Below, one piece after another: positions 58,796-64,000 of a stretch of 64,000 bases of DNA (within the stretch, counting starts at the first letter, position 1; every line of letters begins with the position of its first letter). The notes below the pieces were generated by a model, which had not been told where the DNA came from, made no database searches, and saw only the letters and a program-made list of their open reading frames with translations. The DNA comes from Trueperaceae bacterium. Lineage in GTDB: Bacteria > Deinococcota > Deinococci > Deinococcales > Trueperaceae. The translations under genes were made by a program, and so were the position numbers. The stretch is taken from positions 736,001 through 800,000 of the forward strand of contig JAXHLW010000013.1 of the NCBI GenBank assembly GCA_034521815.1, given 5' to 3'.

Positions 58796-59455
58796 CTACT
58801 CGCGCGCGACCATCAGGAAGTACACCAGGTACATCACGCTGCCCGCCGCCGCTGCGACGTAGGTCAGCGCCGCGGCGTTGAGCACGCTGCGCGCGCCGCC
58901 CGCGTCGTTCTGGGTGACGATGCCCATCTCGCGCAGCTCGACGTGGGCGCGCCGGGACGCGTCGAACTCGATCGGCAGCGTGACCAGCTGGAACAGCACC
59001 GCCGCGCCGAAGAGCACGATGCCGACCTGCGCCAGGCCGGTCATGCCCAGCATCAGGCCGAAGATCGCCAGGTACGGCCCGAAGCGCCCGCCGATGTTGG
59101 CGACCGGCACCAGAGCGCTTCGCCATTGGAGCGGCGCGTACGCCTTGGCGTGCTGCAGGGCGTGCCCGACCTCGTGCGCCGCCACGGCCATGCCGGCGAC
59201 GCTGGCGGAGCCGTAGATCGGCTCGGACAGCCGAACCGTCTTCTTGGTGGGGTCGTAGTGATCGCTGAGCTGACCGCGGACGGACTCGACCTGGACGGTC
59301 CCGTCGAGGCCGTGCTTCCGCAGGATCGCCGTAGCGACCTCGCGACCGGTGAGGCCCGAGGTGTTGGGGCGCTGACTCCAGGTGCCGAAGGTGGACCGGA
59401 GGTACCACTGGGCGCCCAGCGTCATCACCATCATCAGAATGAAGATCGCGAACAT
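58796..59455 (-). CDS. YugP-like membrane zinc metallopeptidase
   Basis: LSDHYDP, AAHEVGHALQ, TLPIEFDAS and AAALTYVA. Confidence 0.93.
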   Translation of the reverse strand: MFAIFILMMVMTLGAQWYLRSTFGTWSQRPNTSGLTGREVATAILRKHGLDGTVQVESVRGQLSDHYDPTKKTVRLSEPIYGSASVAGMAVAAHEVGHALQHAKAYAPLQWRSALVPVANIGGRFGPYLAIFGLMLGMTGLAQVGIVLFGAAVLFQLVTLPIEFDASRRAHVELREMGIVTQNDAGGARSVLNAAALTYVAAAAGSVMYLVYFLMVARE

Positions 59456-59523
59456 GATGTTTTCGTCGTCCTCCTCGTGCGCGGGCCCGCAGACGTGGGT
59501 GCCCGGGGGTCGTCGTTCGGCCA

Positions 59524-59564
59524 GGGTGTCGCCGGGGTGTCGCCGGCGTGTCGCCGGGGTGTCG
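59524..59564. repeat. 11-bp tandem repeat, about 3.7 copies
   Basis: GGGTGTCGCCG units. Confidence 0.85.
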
Positions 59565-59618
59565 TTCGCCTCGGATCGTTAGCGTACCTGTCGGTGACGG
59601 TCGGTGACCGTGTTCAGG

Positions 59619-59936
59619 CTACCCGGGTGCGGCCCGGTCGGCCGGCGGCTCGTCGTCCAGGGGAATCGCGGTCGCGTGGAAGCGGAGCGCGGTGCGCTCC
59701 TGATCGTGCAGCTCCAACGTCACGAACGACGGGACGGTCGACAGGTCCAGGCGGTCGTCACGGATGTAGCCGCGCGCGATGGCCAGCGCCTTGACCGCCT
59801 GATTGACGGCTTGCGGCCCGATCGCTTGCAGCTCGACCGTGCCTTCGCTTCTGAGGAGGGCGGCGATCGCACCCGCGACGGCGTTGGGGCGCGAGGTGCC
59901 GGAGACGCGAAGCACTTCGATGGCGACCACCTCCAT
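59619..59936 (-). CDS. spoVS: SpoVS family protein
   Basis: VLRVSGTSRPNAVAGAIA...QAIGPQAVNQAVKALAIARG. Confidence 0.95.
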   Translation of the reverse strand: MEVVAIEVLRVSGTSRPNAVAGAIAALLRSEGTVELQAIGPQAVNQAVKALAIARGYIRDDRLDLSTVPSFVTLELHDQERTALRFHATAIPLDDEPPADRAAPG

Positions 59937-59970
59937 CGGATGGCGATGCGGCAGGCGCGAGCGCCATTCG

Positions 59971-59999
59971 TTGACAGTCACCCTAGCACCCCGTATACT
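59971..59999 (+). promoter_or_regulatory. Sigma70-type promoter of the ilv-leu operon
   Basis: TTGACA-17 nt-TATACT. Confidence 0.9.
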
Positions 60000-60007
60000 C
60001 CGGCCCA

Positions 60008-60169
60008 GTGAGCGACGTGGCAACCATCCCTGCAATCGCACTCGGCAACGAACGGACTCGCGGCTTCGGTCGGAACGATCGCGCCAGCCATCGATCCCGA
60101 TCGTCGATCGATCGGATCGTCGGCCTCGGTCGGTACGTAGTCCTACGGTCGAGGGGTGGCGCCGCGTAG
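60008..60169 (+). CDS. Putative ilv leader peptide (53 aa)
   Basis: GTG 8 nt after the -10. Ends ...IDRIVGLGRYVVLRSRGGAA* with rare GTA and CTA codons, just before a terminator. Confidence 0.7.
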   Translation: MSDVATIPAIALGNERTRGFGRNDRASHRSRSSIDRIVGLGRYVVLRSRGGAA

Positions 60170-60193
60170 TCGTTTCACGACGCTAGAGTGGCC

Positions 60194-60234
60194 CGCACCC
60201 CGCCGAAGTCCCATTCGGCGGGGTGCGTTGTTTT
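60194..60234 (+). terminator. Attenuator terminator upstream of ilvB
   Basis: CGCACCCCGCCGAA-GTCCCA-TTCGGCGGGGTGCG-TTGTTTT: 14-bp perfect stem. Confidence 0.9.
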
Positions 60235-60259
60235 GACTCAGGGGTCCACGGAGGAAGCC

Positions 60260-61957
60260 ATGAATGGTGCGGAAGTCCTGATTCGTGCGCTCGAACGCCA
60301 AGGGGTCGAGGTCATCTTCGGCCACCCCGGCGGAGCGATCATGCCCGTCTACGACGCTCTCTACGATGCCGATGTACGGCACGTCCTGGTGCGTCACGAG
60401 CAGGCGGGGGCGCACGCTGCGGACGCGTACTACCGTGCGTCCGGCCGCCCCGGCGTGGTGTTCGCCACCAGCGGACCCGGCGCCACGAACCTGGTCACCG
60501 GCCTGGCGACGGCGATGATGGACTCGAGCGCCGTCGTCGCGATCACCGGCAACGTCCCCACCTCGCTGATCGGTACCGACGCCTTTCAGGAGGCCGACGT
60601 CTACGGCATCACCGGCCCCGTCACGAAGCACAACTACCTGGTCAAGAACGTCCAGGACCTCCCGCGCGTCGTCGCCGAGGCGTTCCACATCGCGACCACG
60701 GGCCGTCCCGGCCCGGTCCTGATCGACATCCCCAAGGACGTGCAGCAGGCCGCGTTCGACGGGGGCGACGAGGCGTTCGACGTCGAGATCGACCTGCCCG
60801 GCTACCGGCCCACGGTCGTCGGTCACGCCGGTCAGATCCGCAAGGCCGTCGAGGCCATCAAGGCGGCGAAGCGCCCCGTGATGATGGTCGGCGGCGGCGG
60901 GCAGATCGCGGCGGAGGAGGTCATGGCGTTCGCCCAGCGGACCGGCATCCCCGTGATCACGACGCTGATGGGTATCGGCGCGTATCCGGCCGGCGCGCCC
61001 CAGGCGCTGGGCATGCCCGGCATGCACGGGACCGTCACCTCGAACCGGGCGATCACGCACTGCGACCTGATCATCGGGGCCGGCGTGCGGTTCGACGACC
61101 GGGTGACGGGCAAGATCAGCCGTTTCGCCCCGAACGCCACGGTCGTGCACATCGACATCGACCCGGCCGAGATCAGCAAGCTGGTCCACGCCCACGTGCC
61201 CGTCGTCGGCGACCTCCGCGACGTCCTGCCCCGACTGGGCGAGGCGCTGGAGACGCTGGACCTGAGCGACTGGTGGGCGCAGCTGAACGACTGGAAGGGC
61301 CGCTACCCCGAGCGGTACAAGACGGAGAAGCCGCTCGTCAGTCAAGAGGTGATCGAGCTGCTGCGCGAGCACACCGACGGGAAGTGCGTCGTCACGACCG
61401 AGGTGGGGCAGCATCAGATGTTCGCCGCCCGGCTGTTTCCGACCAGCGAGCCACGTACCTGGATCACCTCGGGCGGGCTCGGAACCATGGGGTTCGGCCT
61501 GCCCGCCGCGATCGGCGCCGCGTTCGCCCGACCGGGCGAGCGGATCGTGTGCGTCGCCGGCGACGGCAGCATCCAGATGAACATCCAGGAGCTCGCCACG
61601 ATCGCCAAGCACCGCCTCCCGATCCTGATCGCGATCGCCAACAACGGCGTGCTCGGGATGGTCCGGCAGTGGCAGGAGCTGTTCCACGCCGAGCGCTACA
61701 GCGAGATCTACCTGGCCGACTCGAACCCCGACTTCGCCAAGCTCGCCGAGGCGTACGGCATCGAGGGTCACAACGTGTTCGACCGCGATACCGCGCGGCG
61801 CCTCGTGCCCGAGGTGCTGAGCCGAGGAGGACCCGCCCTGATCAACTTCGTGGTGTACGAGTCCGAGAAGGTGTACCCGATGGTTCCCTCGGGCGCCGGC
61901 GTCGACGAGATGCTGATCGGCGACCAGGAGCCCGACGTCGAGGAGGCCCCGGCGTGA
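60260..61957 (+). CDS. ilvB: Acetolactate synthase large subunit
   Basis: FGHPGGA, RHEQ, TSGPGATN, GGLGTMGFGLP and GDGS...NN. Confidence 0.97.
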   Translation: MNGAEVLIRALERQGVEVIFGHPGGAIMPVYDALYDADVRHVLVRHEQAGAHAADAYYRASGRPGVVFATSGPGATNLVTGLATAMMDSSAVVAITGNVPTSLIGTDAFQEADVYGITGPVTKHNYLVKNVQDLPRVVAEAFHIATTGRPGPVLIDIPKDVQQAAFDGGDEAFDVEIDLPGYRPTVVGHAGQIRKAVEAIKAAKRPVMMVGGGGQIAAEEVMAFAQRTGIPVITTLMGIGAYPAGAPQALGMPGMHGTVTSNRAITHCDLIIGAGVRFDDRVTGKISRFAPNATVVHIDIDPAEISKLVHAHVPVVGDLRDVLPRLGEALETLDLSDWWAQLNDWKGRYPERYKTEKPLVSQEVIELLREHTDGKCVVTTEVGQHQMFAARLFPTSEPRTWITSGGLGTMGFGLPAAIGAAFARPGERIVCVAGDGSIQMNIQELATIAKHRLPILIAIANNGVLGMVRQWQELFHAERYSEIYLADSNPDFAKLAEAYGIEGHNVFDRDTARRLVPEVLSRGGPALINFVVYESEKVYPMVPSGAGVDEMLIGDQEPDVEEAPA

Positions 61958-62481
61958 ACGACCGTCGACGCGTCATCTCCGTCACCGTCCGCGACGAGCC
62001 GGGCGTGCTGGTCCGGATCGCCGGCCTTTTCGCGCGCCGCGGGTTCAACATCGCCTCGCTCTCGGTCGCGCAGTCCGAGACCCCCGGCTTCAGCCGGACG
62101 ACGTTCGTCGTCGACGGCGACCCGGCCACCATCGAGCAGGTCCAGAAGCAGCTTCAGAAGCTGATCGACGTGATCAAGGTCGTCGACCACACCGAGACCG
62201 CGTTCGTCGATCGCGAGCTGATGCTGATCAAGGTCGCCGTGCGCCAGCCGGAGGACCGCGTCGAGATGCGTCAGGTCGCGCAGGACTTTCGCGCCCGCAT
62301 CGTCGACGTGGGCCGCAGAGCGCTCGTGTTCGAGGTGACCGGCGACGAGGGCAAGATGGACGCGTTCATCGAGCAGATGCGCGAGTTCGGCATCGTCGAG
62401 CTGATCCGTACCGGTCGCGTGGCCCTTCCGCGCAGCGCCCAGTCCCAACCTTCCCAGCCCGCTCGCGCCAAGGTGGCGTGA
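61954..62481 (+). CDS. ilvN: Acetolactate synthase small subunit
   Basis: PGVLVRIAGLFARRGFNI, KQLQKLIDV and RELMLIKV. GTGA overlap with ilvB. Confidence 0.96.
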   Translation: MNDRRRVISVTVRDEPGVLVRIAGLFARRGFNIASLSVAQSETPGFSRTTFVVDGDPATIEQVQKQLQKLIDVIKVVDHTETAFVDRELMLIKVAVRQPEDRVEMRQVAQDFRARIVDVGRRALVFEVTGDEGKMDAFIEQMREFGIVELIRTGRVALPRSAQSQPSQPARAKVA

Positions 62482-62505
62482 CGCGCCCCATCTAGGAGAT
62501 TCCCC

Positions 62506-63498
62506 ATGGCCAACATCTACTACGACGACGACGCCAACCTGCAGCTTCTCTCCGGCAAGAAGATCGCCATCCTGGGCTACGGCAGCCAAGGCCACGCGCA
62601 TGCGCTGAACGCCAAGGAGTCCGGCCTGGACGTGGTCGTCGGACTGCGCAAGGGATCCTCGTCCTGGACCGAGGCCGAGCAGGCGGGCCTGCGCGTCGTC
62701 ACCGTCGCCGAGGCGGCCGCCGAGGGCGACGTGGTGATGGTGCTGCTCCCCGACGAGGTGCAGGGCAAGATCTACCGCGAAGAGATCGCGCCGGGCCTCG
62801 AGGCCGGCGACACGCTGGCGTTCGCGCACGGGTTCAACGTGCAGTTCCACCAGATCGTCCCGCCGGACGGCGTCGACGTGATCATGGTCGCTCCGAAGGG
62901 GCCCGGGCACCTGGTGCGCCGGGTCTACGCCGAGGGGGCCGGCGTTCCGTGCCTGATCGCGGTCCACGTCGACGCCACCGGCGAGGCGAAGGCTCGCGCC
63001 CTGGCGTACGCCAAGGCGATCGGCGGCACGCGCGGCGGTGCGCTCGAGACGACGTTCCAGGAGGAGACCGAGACGGACCTGTTCGGCGAGCAGGCGGTGC
63101 TGTGCGGCGGCGTGACCGAGCTGATGCAGGCCGGGTTCGACACGCTGGTCGAGGCGGGCTATCAGCCCGAGATCGCCTACTTCGAGTGCGTGCACGAGAT
63201 GAAGCTGATCGTCGACCTGATCTACGAAGGCGGCTTCGAGAAGATGCGGCACTCGGTCAGCAACACCGCCGAGTACGGCGACTACCGCACCGGCAAGCGG
63301 ATGGTGACGGAGGAGACCCGCGCGGAGATGCGCCAGGTCCTGCGCGAGATCCAGACCGGTCGGTTCGCCCACGAGTTCCTGCTCGAGAACCAGGTCGGCC
63401 AGCCGCGCCTGAAGACCGAGCGGGCGGCCAGCGACCGCAGCCAGGTCGCCGAGGTAGGCCGGCGCCTGCGCAAGATGATGTCGTTCATCGAGAAATGA
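62506..63498 (+). CDS. ilvC: Ketol-acid reductoisomerase
   Basis: [24 protein letters not shown] and SNTAEYG. Confidence 0.98.
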
Positions 63499-63593
63499 CC
63501 CCAGCGCCGGCGTCCCTCCTTCTTCACGGCCGCACCGCCCCGGTCGCCGCGGCCGCGGCGCACCCGCGACTATCGCGATTCGCGAGCAGCTAG
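63495..63593 (+). CDS. Putative leucine-sensing leader peptide (32 aa) before leuA
   Basis: ATG overlaps the ilv[36 protein letters not shown]; the Leu codons are complementary to the leuA SD. Confidence 0.7.
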
Positions 63594-63660
63594 TCGCGCG
63601 ACCGCGTCGCGACCCGTACCCGCGACGTCGTTTCCGTCCAGACGAAGAAGGAGCATAGAC

Positions 63661-64000
63661 GTGGCCCGAATCAAGATCTTCGACACCACCCTCCGCGACG
63701 GCGAGCAATCGCCCGGCGTCGCCCTGAACACGCGCGAGAAGCGCGAGATCGCACGGCAGCTCGCCCGCCTGGGCGTGGACGTGATCGAGGCCGGCTTCCC
63801 GGTCGCTTCCGAAGGCGACTTCAGAAGCGTCCAGGAGATCGCCGAAGCCACCGGGGAGGAGGATCCGCGCGTGATCGTCGCCGGGCTCGCCCGCGCTCAC
63901 CGGGGCGACATCGAGCGCGCCGCCGCGGCCATCGAGAAGGCGTCCGCCCCGCGCATCCACACCTTCATCGCGACCAGCTCGATCCACATGGAGAAGAAGC
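63661..64000 (+). CDS. leuA: 2-isopropylmalate synthase (3' partial)
   Basis: [35 protein letters not shown] and RIHTFIATS. Confidence 0.95.

Follow-up and report, generated by a model that had tools for sequence, protein, structure and literature searches.

The window analysed here is a stretch of 64,000 nucleotides (nt) from Trueperaceae bacterium, a member of the Deinococcota (assembly GCA_034521815.1, contig JAXHLW010000013.1, positions 736,001 to 800,000), at the 3′ end of which ilvC is followed by leuA. Between the two genes lies a short upstream open reading frame (uORF) that begins on the ilvC stop codon and contains a segment complementary to the Shine-Dalgarno (SD) region of leuA. 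This leader, its counterparts in related genomes and its probable part in leuA expression are the subject of the present analysis, and the features concerned are collected in Table 1.

Table 1. Features of the ilvC-leuA junction, in window coordinates (position 1 is the first letter of the window)
Feature	Position	Strand	Description
ilvC (ketol-acid reductoisomerase)	62506..63498	+	open reading frame (ORF); Pfam KARI_N 252 bits, KARI_C 212 bits
ilvC TGA stop	63496-98	+	overlapped by ATGA 63495-98
leader uORF, 32 codons	63495..63593	+	putative; ATG over the ilvC stop; own stop TAG 63591-93
helix 5′ arm GCCG.CGUC.CUCCUUCUUC	63506..63525	+	predicted; anti-SD with Leu codons CUC CUU CUU (63516-24); minimum free energy (MFE) and centroid folds, shuffles
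CAC CCG CGA CUA (His-Pro-Arg-Leu)	63561..63572	+	candidate pause/sensor site; family comparison
CGA-CUA, family-wide fixed codon pair	63567-72	+	codons 25-26 of the uORF
ilvC-leuA spacer	63499..63660	+	C-rich (C 69, G 48 of 162); without intrinsic terminator
helix 3′ arm: leuA SD region GAAGAAGGAG (63644-53), then GACG, UGGC	63644..63665	+	predicted; GTG start 63661-63 held inside
leuA (2-isopropylmalate synthase)	63661..64000	+	GTG start; cut by the window end

The leader frame and the leuA initiation region

The identity of leuA, of which the window holds an N-terminal part that is HMGL-like in Pfam, was taken from the full gene of 521 amino acids as read in locus L001, which scores 760.9 bits with NF002086 (cut-off 532) and 704.4 bits with TIGR00973, also above its cut-off. 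The first-pass annotation of this DNA had read the junction as a leucine sensor in the middle of an operon, in which three consecutive Leu codons of the uORF pair with the leuA SD. Its description of the frame agrees with the sequence, in that a 32-codon frame starts at the ATG at 63495, which shares nucleotides with the ilvC stop. Four Leu codons occur in this frame, every one of a non-preferred type, and codons 8-10 are the run CUC CUU CUU. In the 1143 long ORFs of the window genome, which has 71% G+C, CUU makes up 4.8% and CUA 1.1% of Leu codons, so that CUU is indeed uncommon as had been stated, while CGA makes up 9.4% of Arg codons and the genome has one tRNA-Leu(UAG) gene. Among Leu codons, CUA ranks last or last but one in frequency; in lower-GC relatives it is the rarest (60 of 1164, 5.2%), and CGA there accounts for 11.7% of Arg codons.

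The 5′ part of the uORF is predicted to form a long helix with the start of leuA. As had been claimed, the segment CTCCTTCTTC (63516-25) and the leuA SD region GAAGAAGGAG (63644-53) are exact reverse complements of each other, and a perfect complement of at least 10 nt between 63495-63630 and 63636-63663 was reached in 2 of 5000 dinucleotide shuffles. Folding of 63495-63670 gave this anti-SD/SD helix in both the MFE and the centroid structure, lengthened by the pairing of CGUC (63511-14) with GACG (63658-61) and of GCCG (63506-09) with UGGC (63662-65). Because these extensions take in 63658-61 and 63662-65, the GTG start and the SD are both buried in the predicted fold, in which uORF codons 4-11 pair with the leuA SD and start codon. 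The MFE is −79.7 kcal/mol (z = −3.0), a value equalled by 1 of 200 shuffles, and AAGGAG of the leuA SD has an unpaired probability of 0.00 in the free RNA. A further extension proposed earlier, between ACGG (63526-29) and CCGT (63634-37), had to be given up, as the two segments are not paired with each other in either the MFE or the centroid fold and ACGG is not retained in the closest relatives. No terminator-like site was found in 63495-63663, in keeping with the earlier remark that the gap is without a U-tailed terminator, and an Rfam scan of 59000-64000 returned no family at E values up to 1, T-box included.

Conservation of the leader and of its CGA-CUA codon pair

Among 121 genomes of the family, leuA was located in 112, and upstream regions were taken from 111 of these, G058 being left out. 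In 44 of the 111 regions, a uORF with an in-frame Arg-Leu pair precedes leuA and follows ilvC or a different gene, 7 of the 11 genomes of the window's genus being among them, so the conservation that the first-pass annotation anticipated is borne out; L122, L125, L133 and L150 were ambiguous and stand outside the count of 44. In these elements, partly chosen by the codon pair itself, Arg is encoded by CGA in 39 and CGG in 5, and Leu by CUA in 42, CUG in 1 and CUU in 1. A scan of all spacers for the peptide [GT]NN.RL alone, in any codons, gave 22 matches, in which Arg is CGA in all 22 and Leu is CUA in 20. The consensus peptide is R-R-L-G/T-N-N-x-R-L in lower-GC genera, ...G-R-W-x-F/Y-G-x-x-H-R-L-P in genus g7 and ...H-P-R-L in the window's genus. 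One further uORF, in L133 (G056), holds CGA-CUA twice (…QRLAWLRLGERLS…) and does not have ilvC upstream.

Codons upstream of the fixed pair behave differently in this motif. The Arg-Arg pair is written with CGC, CGG, AGG, AGA and CGT, the following Leu with six codons, Asn with AAC or AAT, and Gly with four codons. Because the motif codons other than CGA-CUA vary synonymously, the uORF peptide is, to judge from codon usage, under coding selection, and the last two motif codons are additionally fixed as codons. The same evidence bears on a very improbable alternative, that the element works at the RNA level, as a CG-ACUAN-CG mini-hairpin with CUA in its loop, bound by a protein or by tRNA-Leu, the frame being incidental. 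Synonymous variation, frame-keeping insertions and deletions and the link between frame and start all argue for translation instead. Around ACUAN, g1 (columns 71-74/80-83) and g30 (columns 51-55/61-65) show a small predicted stem; by eye it is weak or absent in L145, L149 and L152. Protein binding was favoured by Seliverstov et al. for the LEU element, the leuA leader of Actinobacteria (PMC1262725). No Rfam match was obtained for the present element at E values up to 1, T-box families included. Binding of tRNA by the ACUA loop in the manner of a T-box was dropped as an idea, given the lack of an Rfam match and the strong coding signals.

Coupling of the uORF to ilvC is found well beyond the window. 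An ATG or GTG that overlaps the ilvC TGA and is in frame with CGA-CUA occurs in 18 of the 44 elements, distributed over four genera (g1 7, g36 7, g7 2, g33 2), so that the ATGA-type overlap noted in the first-pass annotation has counterparts in relatives. The distance from this start to CGA ranges from 27 to 84 nt across the 18 and is 72, 72, 72, 72, 81, 84 and 78 nt within the genus, all multiples of 3. Since the in-frame overlap holds despite this varying distance, the ilvC-coupled start is, as far as sequence comparison can tell, a recurrent form and not an accident of the window genome. For the remaining 26 elements, an in-frame start behind an SD-like 4-mer was found in 18, against 10 of 52 control frames, and in g30 the uORF starts 5 nt past the ilvC stop. 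Overlapping starts, SD-like starts, frame-preserving indels and synonymous variation together indicate that the uORF is probably translated.

Recurrent stop-start overlap would also suit a constitutive relay, in which the uORF carries ribosomes from ilvC across a long, structured gap, unfolds the leuA start and sets the ilvC:leuA ratio, the slow CGA-CUA pair lengthening ribosome residence and leucine going unsensed. Consistent with this, the ilvC stop and the uORF start both fall in the 5′ arm of the g30 helix, and Leu is not overrepresented in the uORFs. On the other hand, the element also accompanies leuA in L178, L181 and L133, which do not have ilvC before it, and the fixed codon of the A site is a Leu codon, specifically one that serves elsewhere as a starvation sensor; many relatives, moreover, couple ilvC and leuA by spacers of 0-50 nt, for which no relay is needed. 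The relay is accordingly judged decidedly unlikely, and both it and the protein- or RNA-binding hairpin are less likely than a ribosome-read leucine leader.

The presence and absence of the leader suggest that the module is gained or lost as one block, whose limits lie just past the ilvC stop and some 27 nt short of leuA. The genus genomes without it are L007, L008, L011 and L021. In RNA libraries, a contig of run X1 connects 63498 directly to 63634, and a 190-nt contig of run X2 spans 63492-63681 with 13 differences; in metatranscriptome contigs, only small shares (at most 0.15) were recovered. The X1 and X2 contigs derive from relatives and show neither transcription of the window locus nor RNA ends, and the libraries thus contain relatives with and without the element.

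An 18-nt pattern, GGNAAYAAYNNNCGACTA, was scanned in the phylum sample of 364 genomes, with counts for 127 in the window's family and 236 in other families. It occurs in 17 of the 127 family genomes, once in each and always just upstream of leuA; 16 of these matches lie inside the collected leuA upstream regions and the 17th (G067) lies between ilvC and leuA. Outside the family, it was found in 0 of 125, 0 of 23, 0 of 68 and 0 of 1 genomes of four families and in 1 of 19 of a fifth. This last match (L202) was set aside as chance, being inside a coding region with neither ilvC nor leuA nearby, and the reversed control pattern gave 7 matches in the same genome set. No copy of the motif was found in 80 named leuA loci from other phyla.

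Helix placement, ribosome masking and the proposed attenuator

Whole-spacer MAFFT alignments misaligned distant copies and were excluded from pair counts, codon-anchored scripts being used instead. In the window's genus, the anti-SD/SD pairing is retained with compensating flanks, which agrees with the covariation that had been expected. The bases beside the CUCCUUC core covary, as UUC/GAA in L001, GC/GC in L004 and L006 and CC/GG in L005, and a C·A mismatch stands beside the core in L002 and L003. Folding gave an SD accessibility of 0.00-0.17 in the free RNA for 6 of the 7 genus members. For genus g30, RNAalifold returned the same architecture with 27 pairs, 9 of them with compensatory changes; its 5′ arm begins at the ilvC stop and continues into the opening codons of the uORF, while its 3′ arm reaches the SD.

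Across the family, SD pairing with a segment associated with the uORF is a tendency, not a rule, and its placement differs among genera. The anti-SD may lie at or just 3′ of CGA-CUA, as in L141, L151 and L198 (duplex z −3.2 to −3.7); within the uORF's 5′ part, as in the window's genus and in g30; or over the uORF's own SD and start, as in L147 and L148 (z −5.6 and −5.8). The spacers of g42 (L147, L148, L154) are very long, at 328-374 nt, and a helix of about 20 bp joins the SD region of the uORF to that of leuA (z about −5.7), by which the two start sites would be locked together.

Ribosomes were placed on the leader by masking the nucleotides that they would cover. With one ribosome masked at CUA, SD accessibility rose from 0.10 to 0.43 in L141, from 0.00 to 0.73 in L151 and from 0.05 to 0.39 in L198. 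In the window's genus, a CUA-paused ribosome with two more queued behind it brought SD accessibility to 0.25-0.65, and in six genus members a ribosome on a CUU of the arm raised it from 0.00-0.17 to 0.26-0.78. In these model folds, a pause at CUC-CUU-CUU would thus disrupt the helix itself; a pause at CUA would do so in L141, L151 and L198 and would not in the genus. Direct SD release by one ribosome paused at CUA was rejected for the window's genus, and such masking did not open the SD in most elements.

Taken together, these sequence comparisons indicate that the junction holds a genuine and conserved leader of leuA, of the type read by ribosomes, nearest in design to the LEU element and with a peptide and a fixed rare codon pair of its own. 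The first-pass interpretation is supported as regards a ribosome-read leader; its emphasis on the Leu run is not, as the feature fixed throughout the family is CGA-CUA. With middling confidence, the leader is read as a leader-peptide translational attenuator of leuA inside an ilvBNC-leuA operon. Ribosomes finishing ilvC could restart at the overlapping AUG, and in the free RNA the leuA start site would be hidden by pairing of the 5′ part of the uORF with the SD and start codon. When charged tRNA-Leu is scarce, chiefly the minor UAG isoacceptor that reads CUA, ribosomes would dwell on the uORF; in the window's genus, CUC-CUU-CUU within the anti-SD would be a second, direct place of dwelling. 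By occupying the 5′ arm, whether through a pause at that point or in a queue behind a pause at CUA, a ribosome would block anti-SD pairing and allow a 30S subunit to load on leuA. With ample leucine, the uORF would be read through, the ribosome would leave at the UAG at 63591, the helix would reclose and leuA translation would drop. The window's leader would therefore carry two sensors: an ancestral one, CGA-CUA, acting by queuing within the stream of ribosomes fed from ilvC, and a local one, CUC-CUU-CUU, acting directly.

Whether the local sensor could be the only one was weighed separately. In this doubtful reading, the helix is opened directly by a pause on CUC-CUU-CUU in the anti-SD, and the role of CGA-CUA is a different one. 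The folds in six genus members with the ribosomal A site on an arm CUU (SD accessibility 0.26-0.78), the share of CUU among Leu codons (4.8%), the CUU CUU CUU runs of sister-genus leuA leaders (4 of 4 loci and a metagenome-assembled genome (MAG) labelled Deinococcus) and the match to the design of the LEU element (PMC1262725) are all points for it. The run is not conserved, however: three Leu codons stand in the arm in the window genome only, against two (CUC CUU) in L002-L005, one (CUU) in L006 and none in L010, so that the three-codon run put forward in the first-pass annotation is unique to the window genome. Since a CUCCUU anti-SD in that frame must read Leu-Leu, the run may be a by-product of the pairing, for which selection as a sensor is not required. 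The strict family-wide fixation of CGA-CUA, furthermore, is left unexplained. Of the earlier proposal that the Leu run is the sensor, the part that holds is that a ribosome on CUU opens the SD in model folds and that sister-genus leaders use CUU runs; the part that does not is that the run is a kept feature. Attenuation with CGA-CUA as the ancestral sensor remains the preferred reading.

A different outcome of uORF translation was considered in Rho-dependent polarity, for which the tna and mgtA/corA leaders, where leader translation governs Rho, provide a model. The C-rich spacer would load Rho, and translation of or pausing on the uORF would decide termination before or within leuA. No intrinsic terminator is available to the leader, a weak hairpin with a U-run being present in 3 of the 44 elements, and classical terminator attenuation was rejected on the same grounds. 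C exceeds G between CUA and the SD in 37 of the 44, the C-G excess of the window spacer ranks among the highest 1.6% when set against 8266 sense-strand coding windows from the genome, and Rho is encoded there (Rho_RNA_bind, 89.6 bits, C13:1034698-1034913). The 3′ C-richness may, however, mirror the G-rich 5′ arm, G exceeding C in the 5′ part of 32 of the 44 elements; of the C-rich tract, no more than about 12 nt would be shielded by a ribosome pausing at CUA, and strong folding of the spacer disfavours loading. Termination by Rho is thus considered unlikely, more so than sensing by the CUU run alone. The Rho RNA-binding domain (G000:C13:1034698-1034913) is located inside a 672-amino-acid open frame, and Rho in this genome appears, from that frame, to carry a long extension.

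Several observations weigh against translational attenuation of leuA as proposed. The 44 elements were partly selected by the CGA-CUA motif itself, and the relatives are not independent of one another. Excluding the anchor codon, the Leu content of the uORFs is 9.6%, against 5.5% and 8.1% in the other frames, so that they are not Leu-rich. In the window's genus, 4 of the 11 genomes lack the element, with spacers of 28-34 nt in three and of 81 nt without the motif in one, and the element is therefore dispensable. Duplex z values of −2 or below against shuffles were obtained in only 13 of the 44 elements; several values are near 0, and those of all 44 average about −1.1. Masking by one ribosome at CUA leaves SD accessibility unchanged in the genus (0.00 to 0.00 in the window), and the link from CUA to the SD is there modelled as indirect because queued ribosomes are needed for SD opening; the queue that would connect the pause to the SD is inferred. 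By analogy, mutants of the LEU element in Streptomyces coelicolor departed from the predictions of classical attenuation, as reported by Seliverstov et al. (PMC1262725).

A more far-reaching possibility is raised tentatively, and with less confidence than attenuation as such: that R-R-L-G/T-N-N-x-R-L with its fixed CGA-CUA represents a new family of leader or arrest peptides. The nascent chain and CGA in the P site would sensitise the ribosome, a single CUA in the A site would report charging of the minor tRNA-Leu(UAG), the signal would pass by queuing or collision, and the whole would form a mid-operon plug-in by stop-start coupling to ilvC. Possible routes from such an arrest to leuA are masking of the upstream anti-SD, collision-triggered cleavage that removes the anti-SD, and blocking of Rho. 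A literature search found no report of this leuA leader element. If attenuation of leuA is correct, the leader would add leucine-specific control of leuA to an Ile/Val/Leu attenuator at the 5′ end of the operon. It would constitute a third, compact design of leucine-gene leader, terminator-free and coupled mid-operon to the stop codon of the gene before it, with a conserved peptide that contains one fixed pair of rare codons. Related genera appear to connect the same peptide with the leuA SD in no fewer than three arrangements, a natural series of variants for the passage from a paused ribosome to translation of the next gene, and these variants bear on whether peptide and P-site context can make a single hungry codon sensitive enough.

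The operon's 5′ leader (59971-60260) looks like a classical Ile/Val/Leu attenuator. It has a promoter-like TTGACA, 17 nt, TATACT at 59971-99, a 53-codon ORF at 60008-60169 whose end region ...IDRIVGLGRYVVLR... includes the rare codons GUA GUC CUA, and a terminator-like hairpin with a U-run at 60194-60227, just 5′ of the ilvB ATG at 60260. Past the other end of the junction, a second HMGL-like gene starts after leuA (G000:C13:801232-801366, L001) with 71% DNA identity to the N-terminal region of leuA, and may be a citramalate or homocitrate synthase paralogue.

Comparison with known leader systems

Control of leucine genes by leader peptides is textbook knowledge in enterobacteria and is unresolved for the actinobacterial LEU element, to which the window's leader is closest. 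In the LEU element, as described by Seliverstov et al. 2005 (PMC1262725), Leu codons of a uORF pair with the leuA SD as the base stem of a compact structure and there is no terminator, so that the parallel drawn in the first-pass annotation is accurate. Both leaders lie directly upstream of leuA, have a base stem of a Leu-codon run with the SD, and lack a terminator. For the leader peptide and the conserved interior, a pseudoknot or alternative hairpin, the window was compared with the clear LEU copies L031, L047 and L049, from which it differs in both. In these copies, among them one from a Solirubrobacterales MAG and one from a MAG labelled Bifidobacterium breve, the SD is complemented by Leu codons, the leader reads ...LLLLLP.RGE* and a C-run/G-run hairpin follows; the window has neither that peptide nor that hairpin. 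Its run of three Leu codons is weaker than the five of L031 and L049 and is unconserved in the genus. Unlike the LEU element, it carries CGA-CUA and the peptide motif, is coupled to the ilvC stop in the middle of an operon, and occurs in Deinococcota and not in Actinobacteria.

With the leuL attenuator, the window's leader would share a ribosome-read peptide gauging charged tRNA-Leu, as is presumed here, and control codons for the Leu of the pathway, among them rare CUA. The two differ in that leuL works by a terminator and antiterminator with several tandem CUA codons, whereas the window has no terminator, one CUA and a helix that sequesters the SD. In the enterobacterial leu leader the control codon is CUA (PMC1183508, PMC8384417), which is a precedent for regarding this codon as the most sensitive one in leucine control.

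Closer in phylogeny are the leaders of the sister genus near the MAG labelled Deinococcus; in leuA DNA, order-level relatives are 76-78% identical to a MAG with the label Deinococcus sp. This Deinococcus-type leader (L034, L016-L018, L025), some 150 nt before leuA, encodes M..(G/S)LLL(L)..PPVE* with CUU CUU CUU runs, after which a GC-rich hairpin and a U-run were read by eye; judged by these features, it is a classical attenuator. It fits the prediction of leader peptides for attenuation in D. deserti (PMC4007540). The window shares with it the phylum, the gene and a short peptide with rare CUU, and differs from it in having CGA-CUA and the link to ilvC.

In mode of action, the proposed attenuator also has a counterpart outside amino acid biosynthesis. 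The leuA SD of the window is predicted to pair with a segment of the leader ORF, as in ermC and cat. In translational attenuation of ermC and cat, a ribosome paused in the leader ORF melts a helix in which the SD of the following gene is hidden. The trigger is what separates the systems: an antibiotic together with the nascent peptide for ermC and cat, and presumably the charging of tRNA-Leu for the leader between ilvC and leuA.

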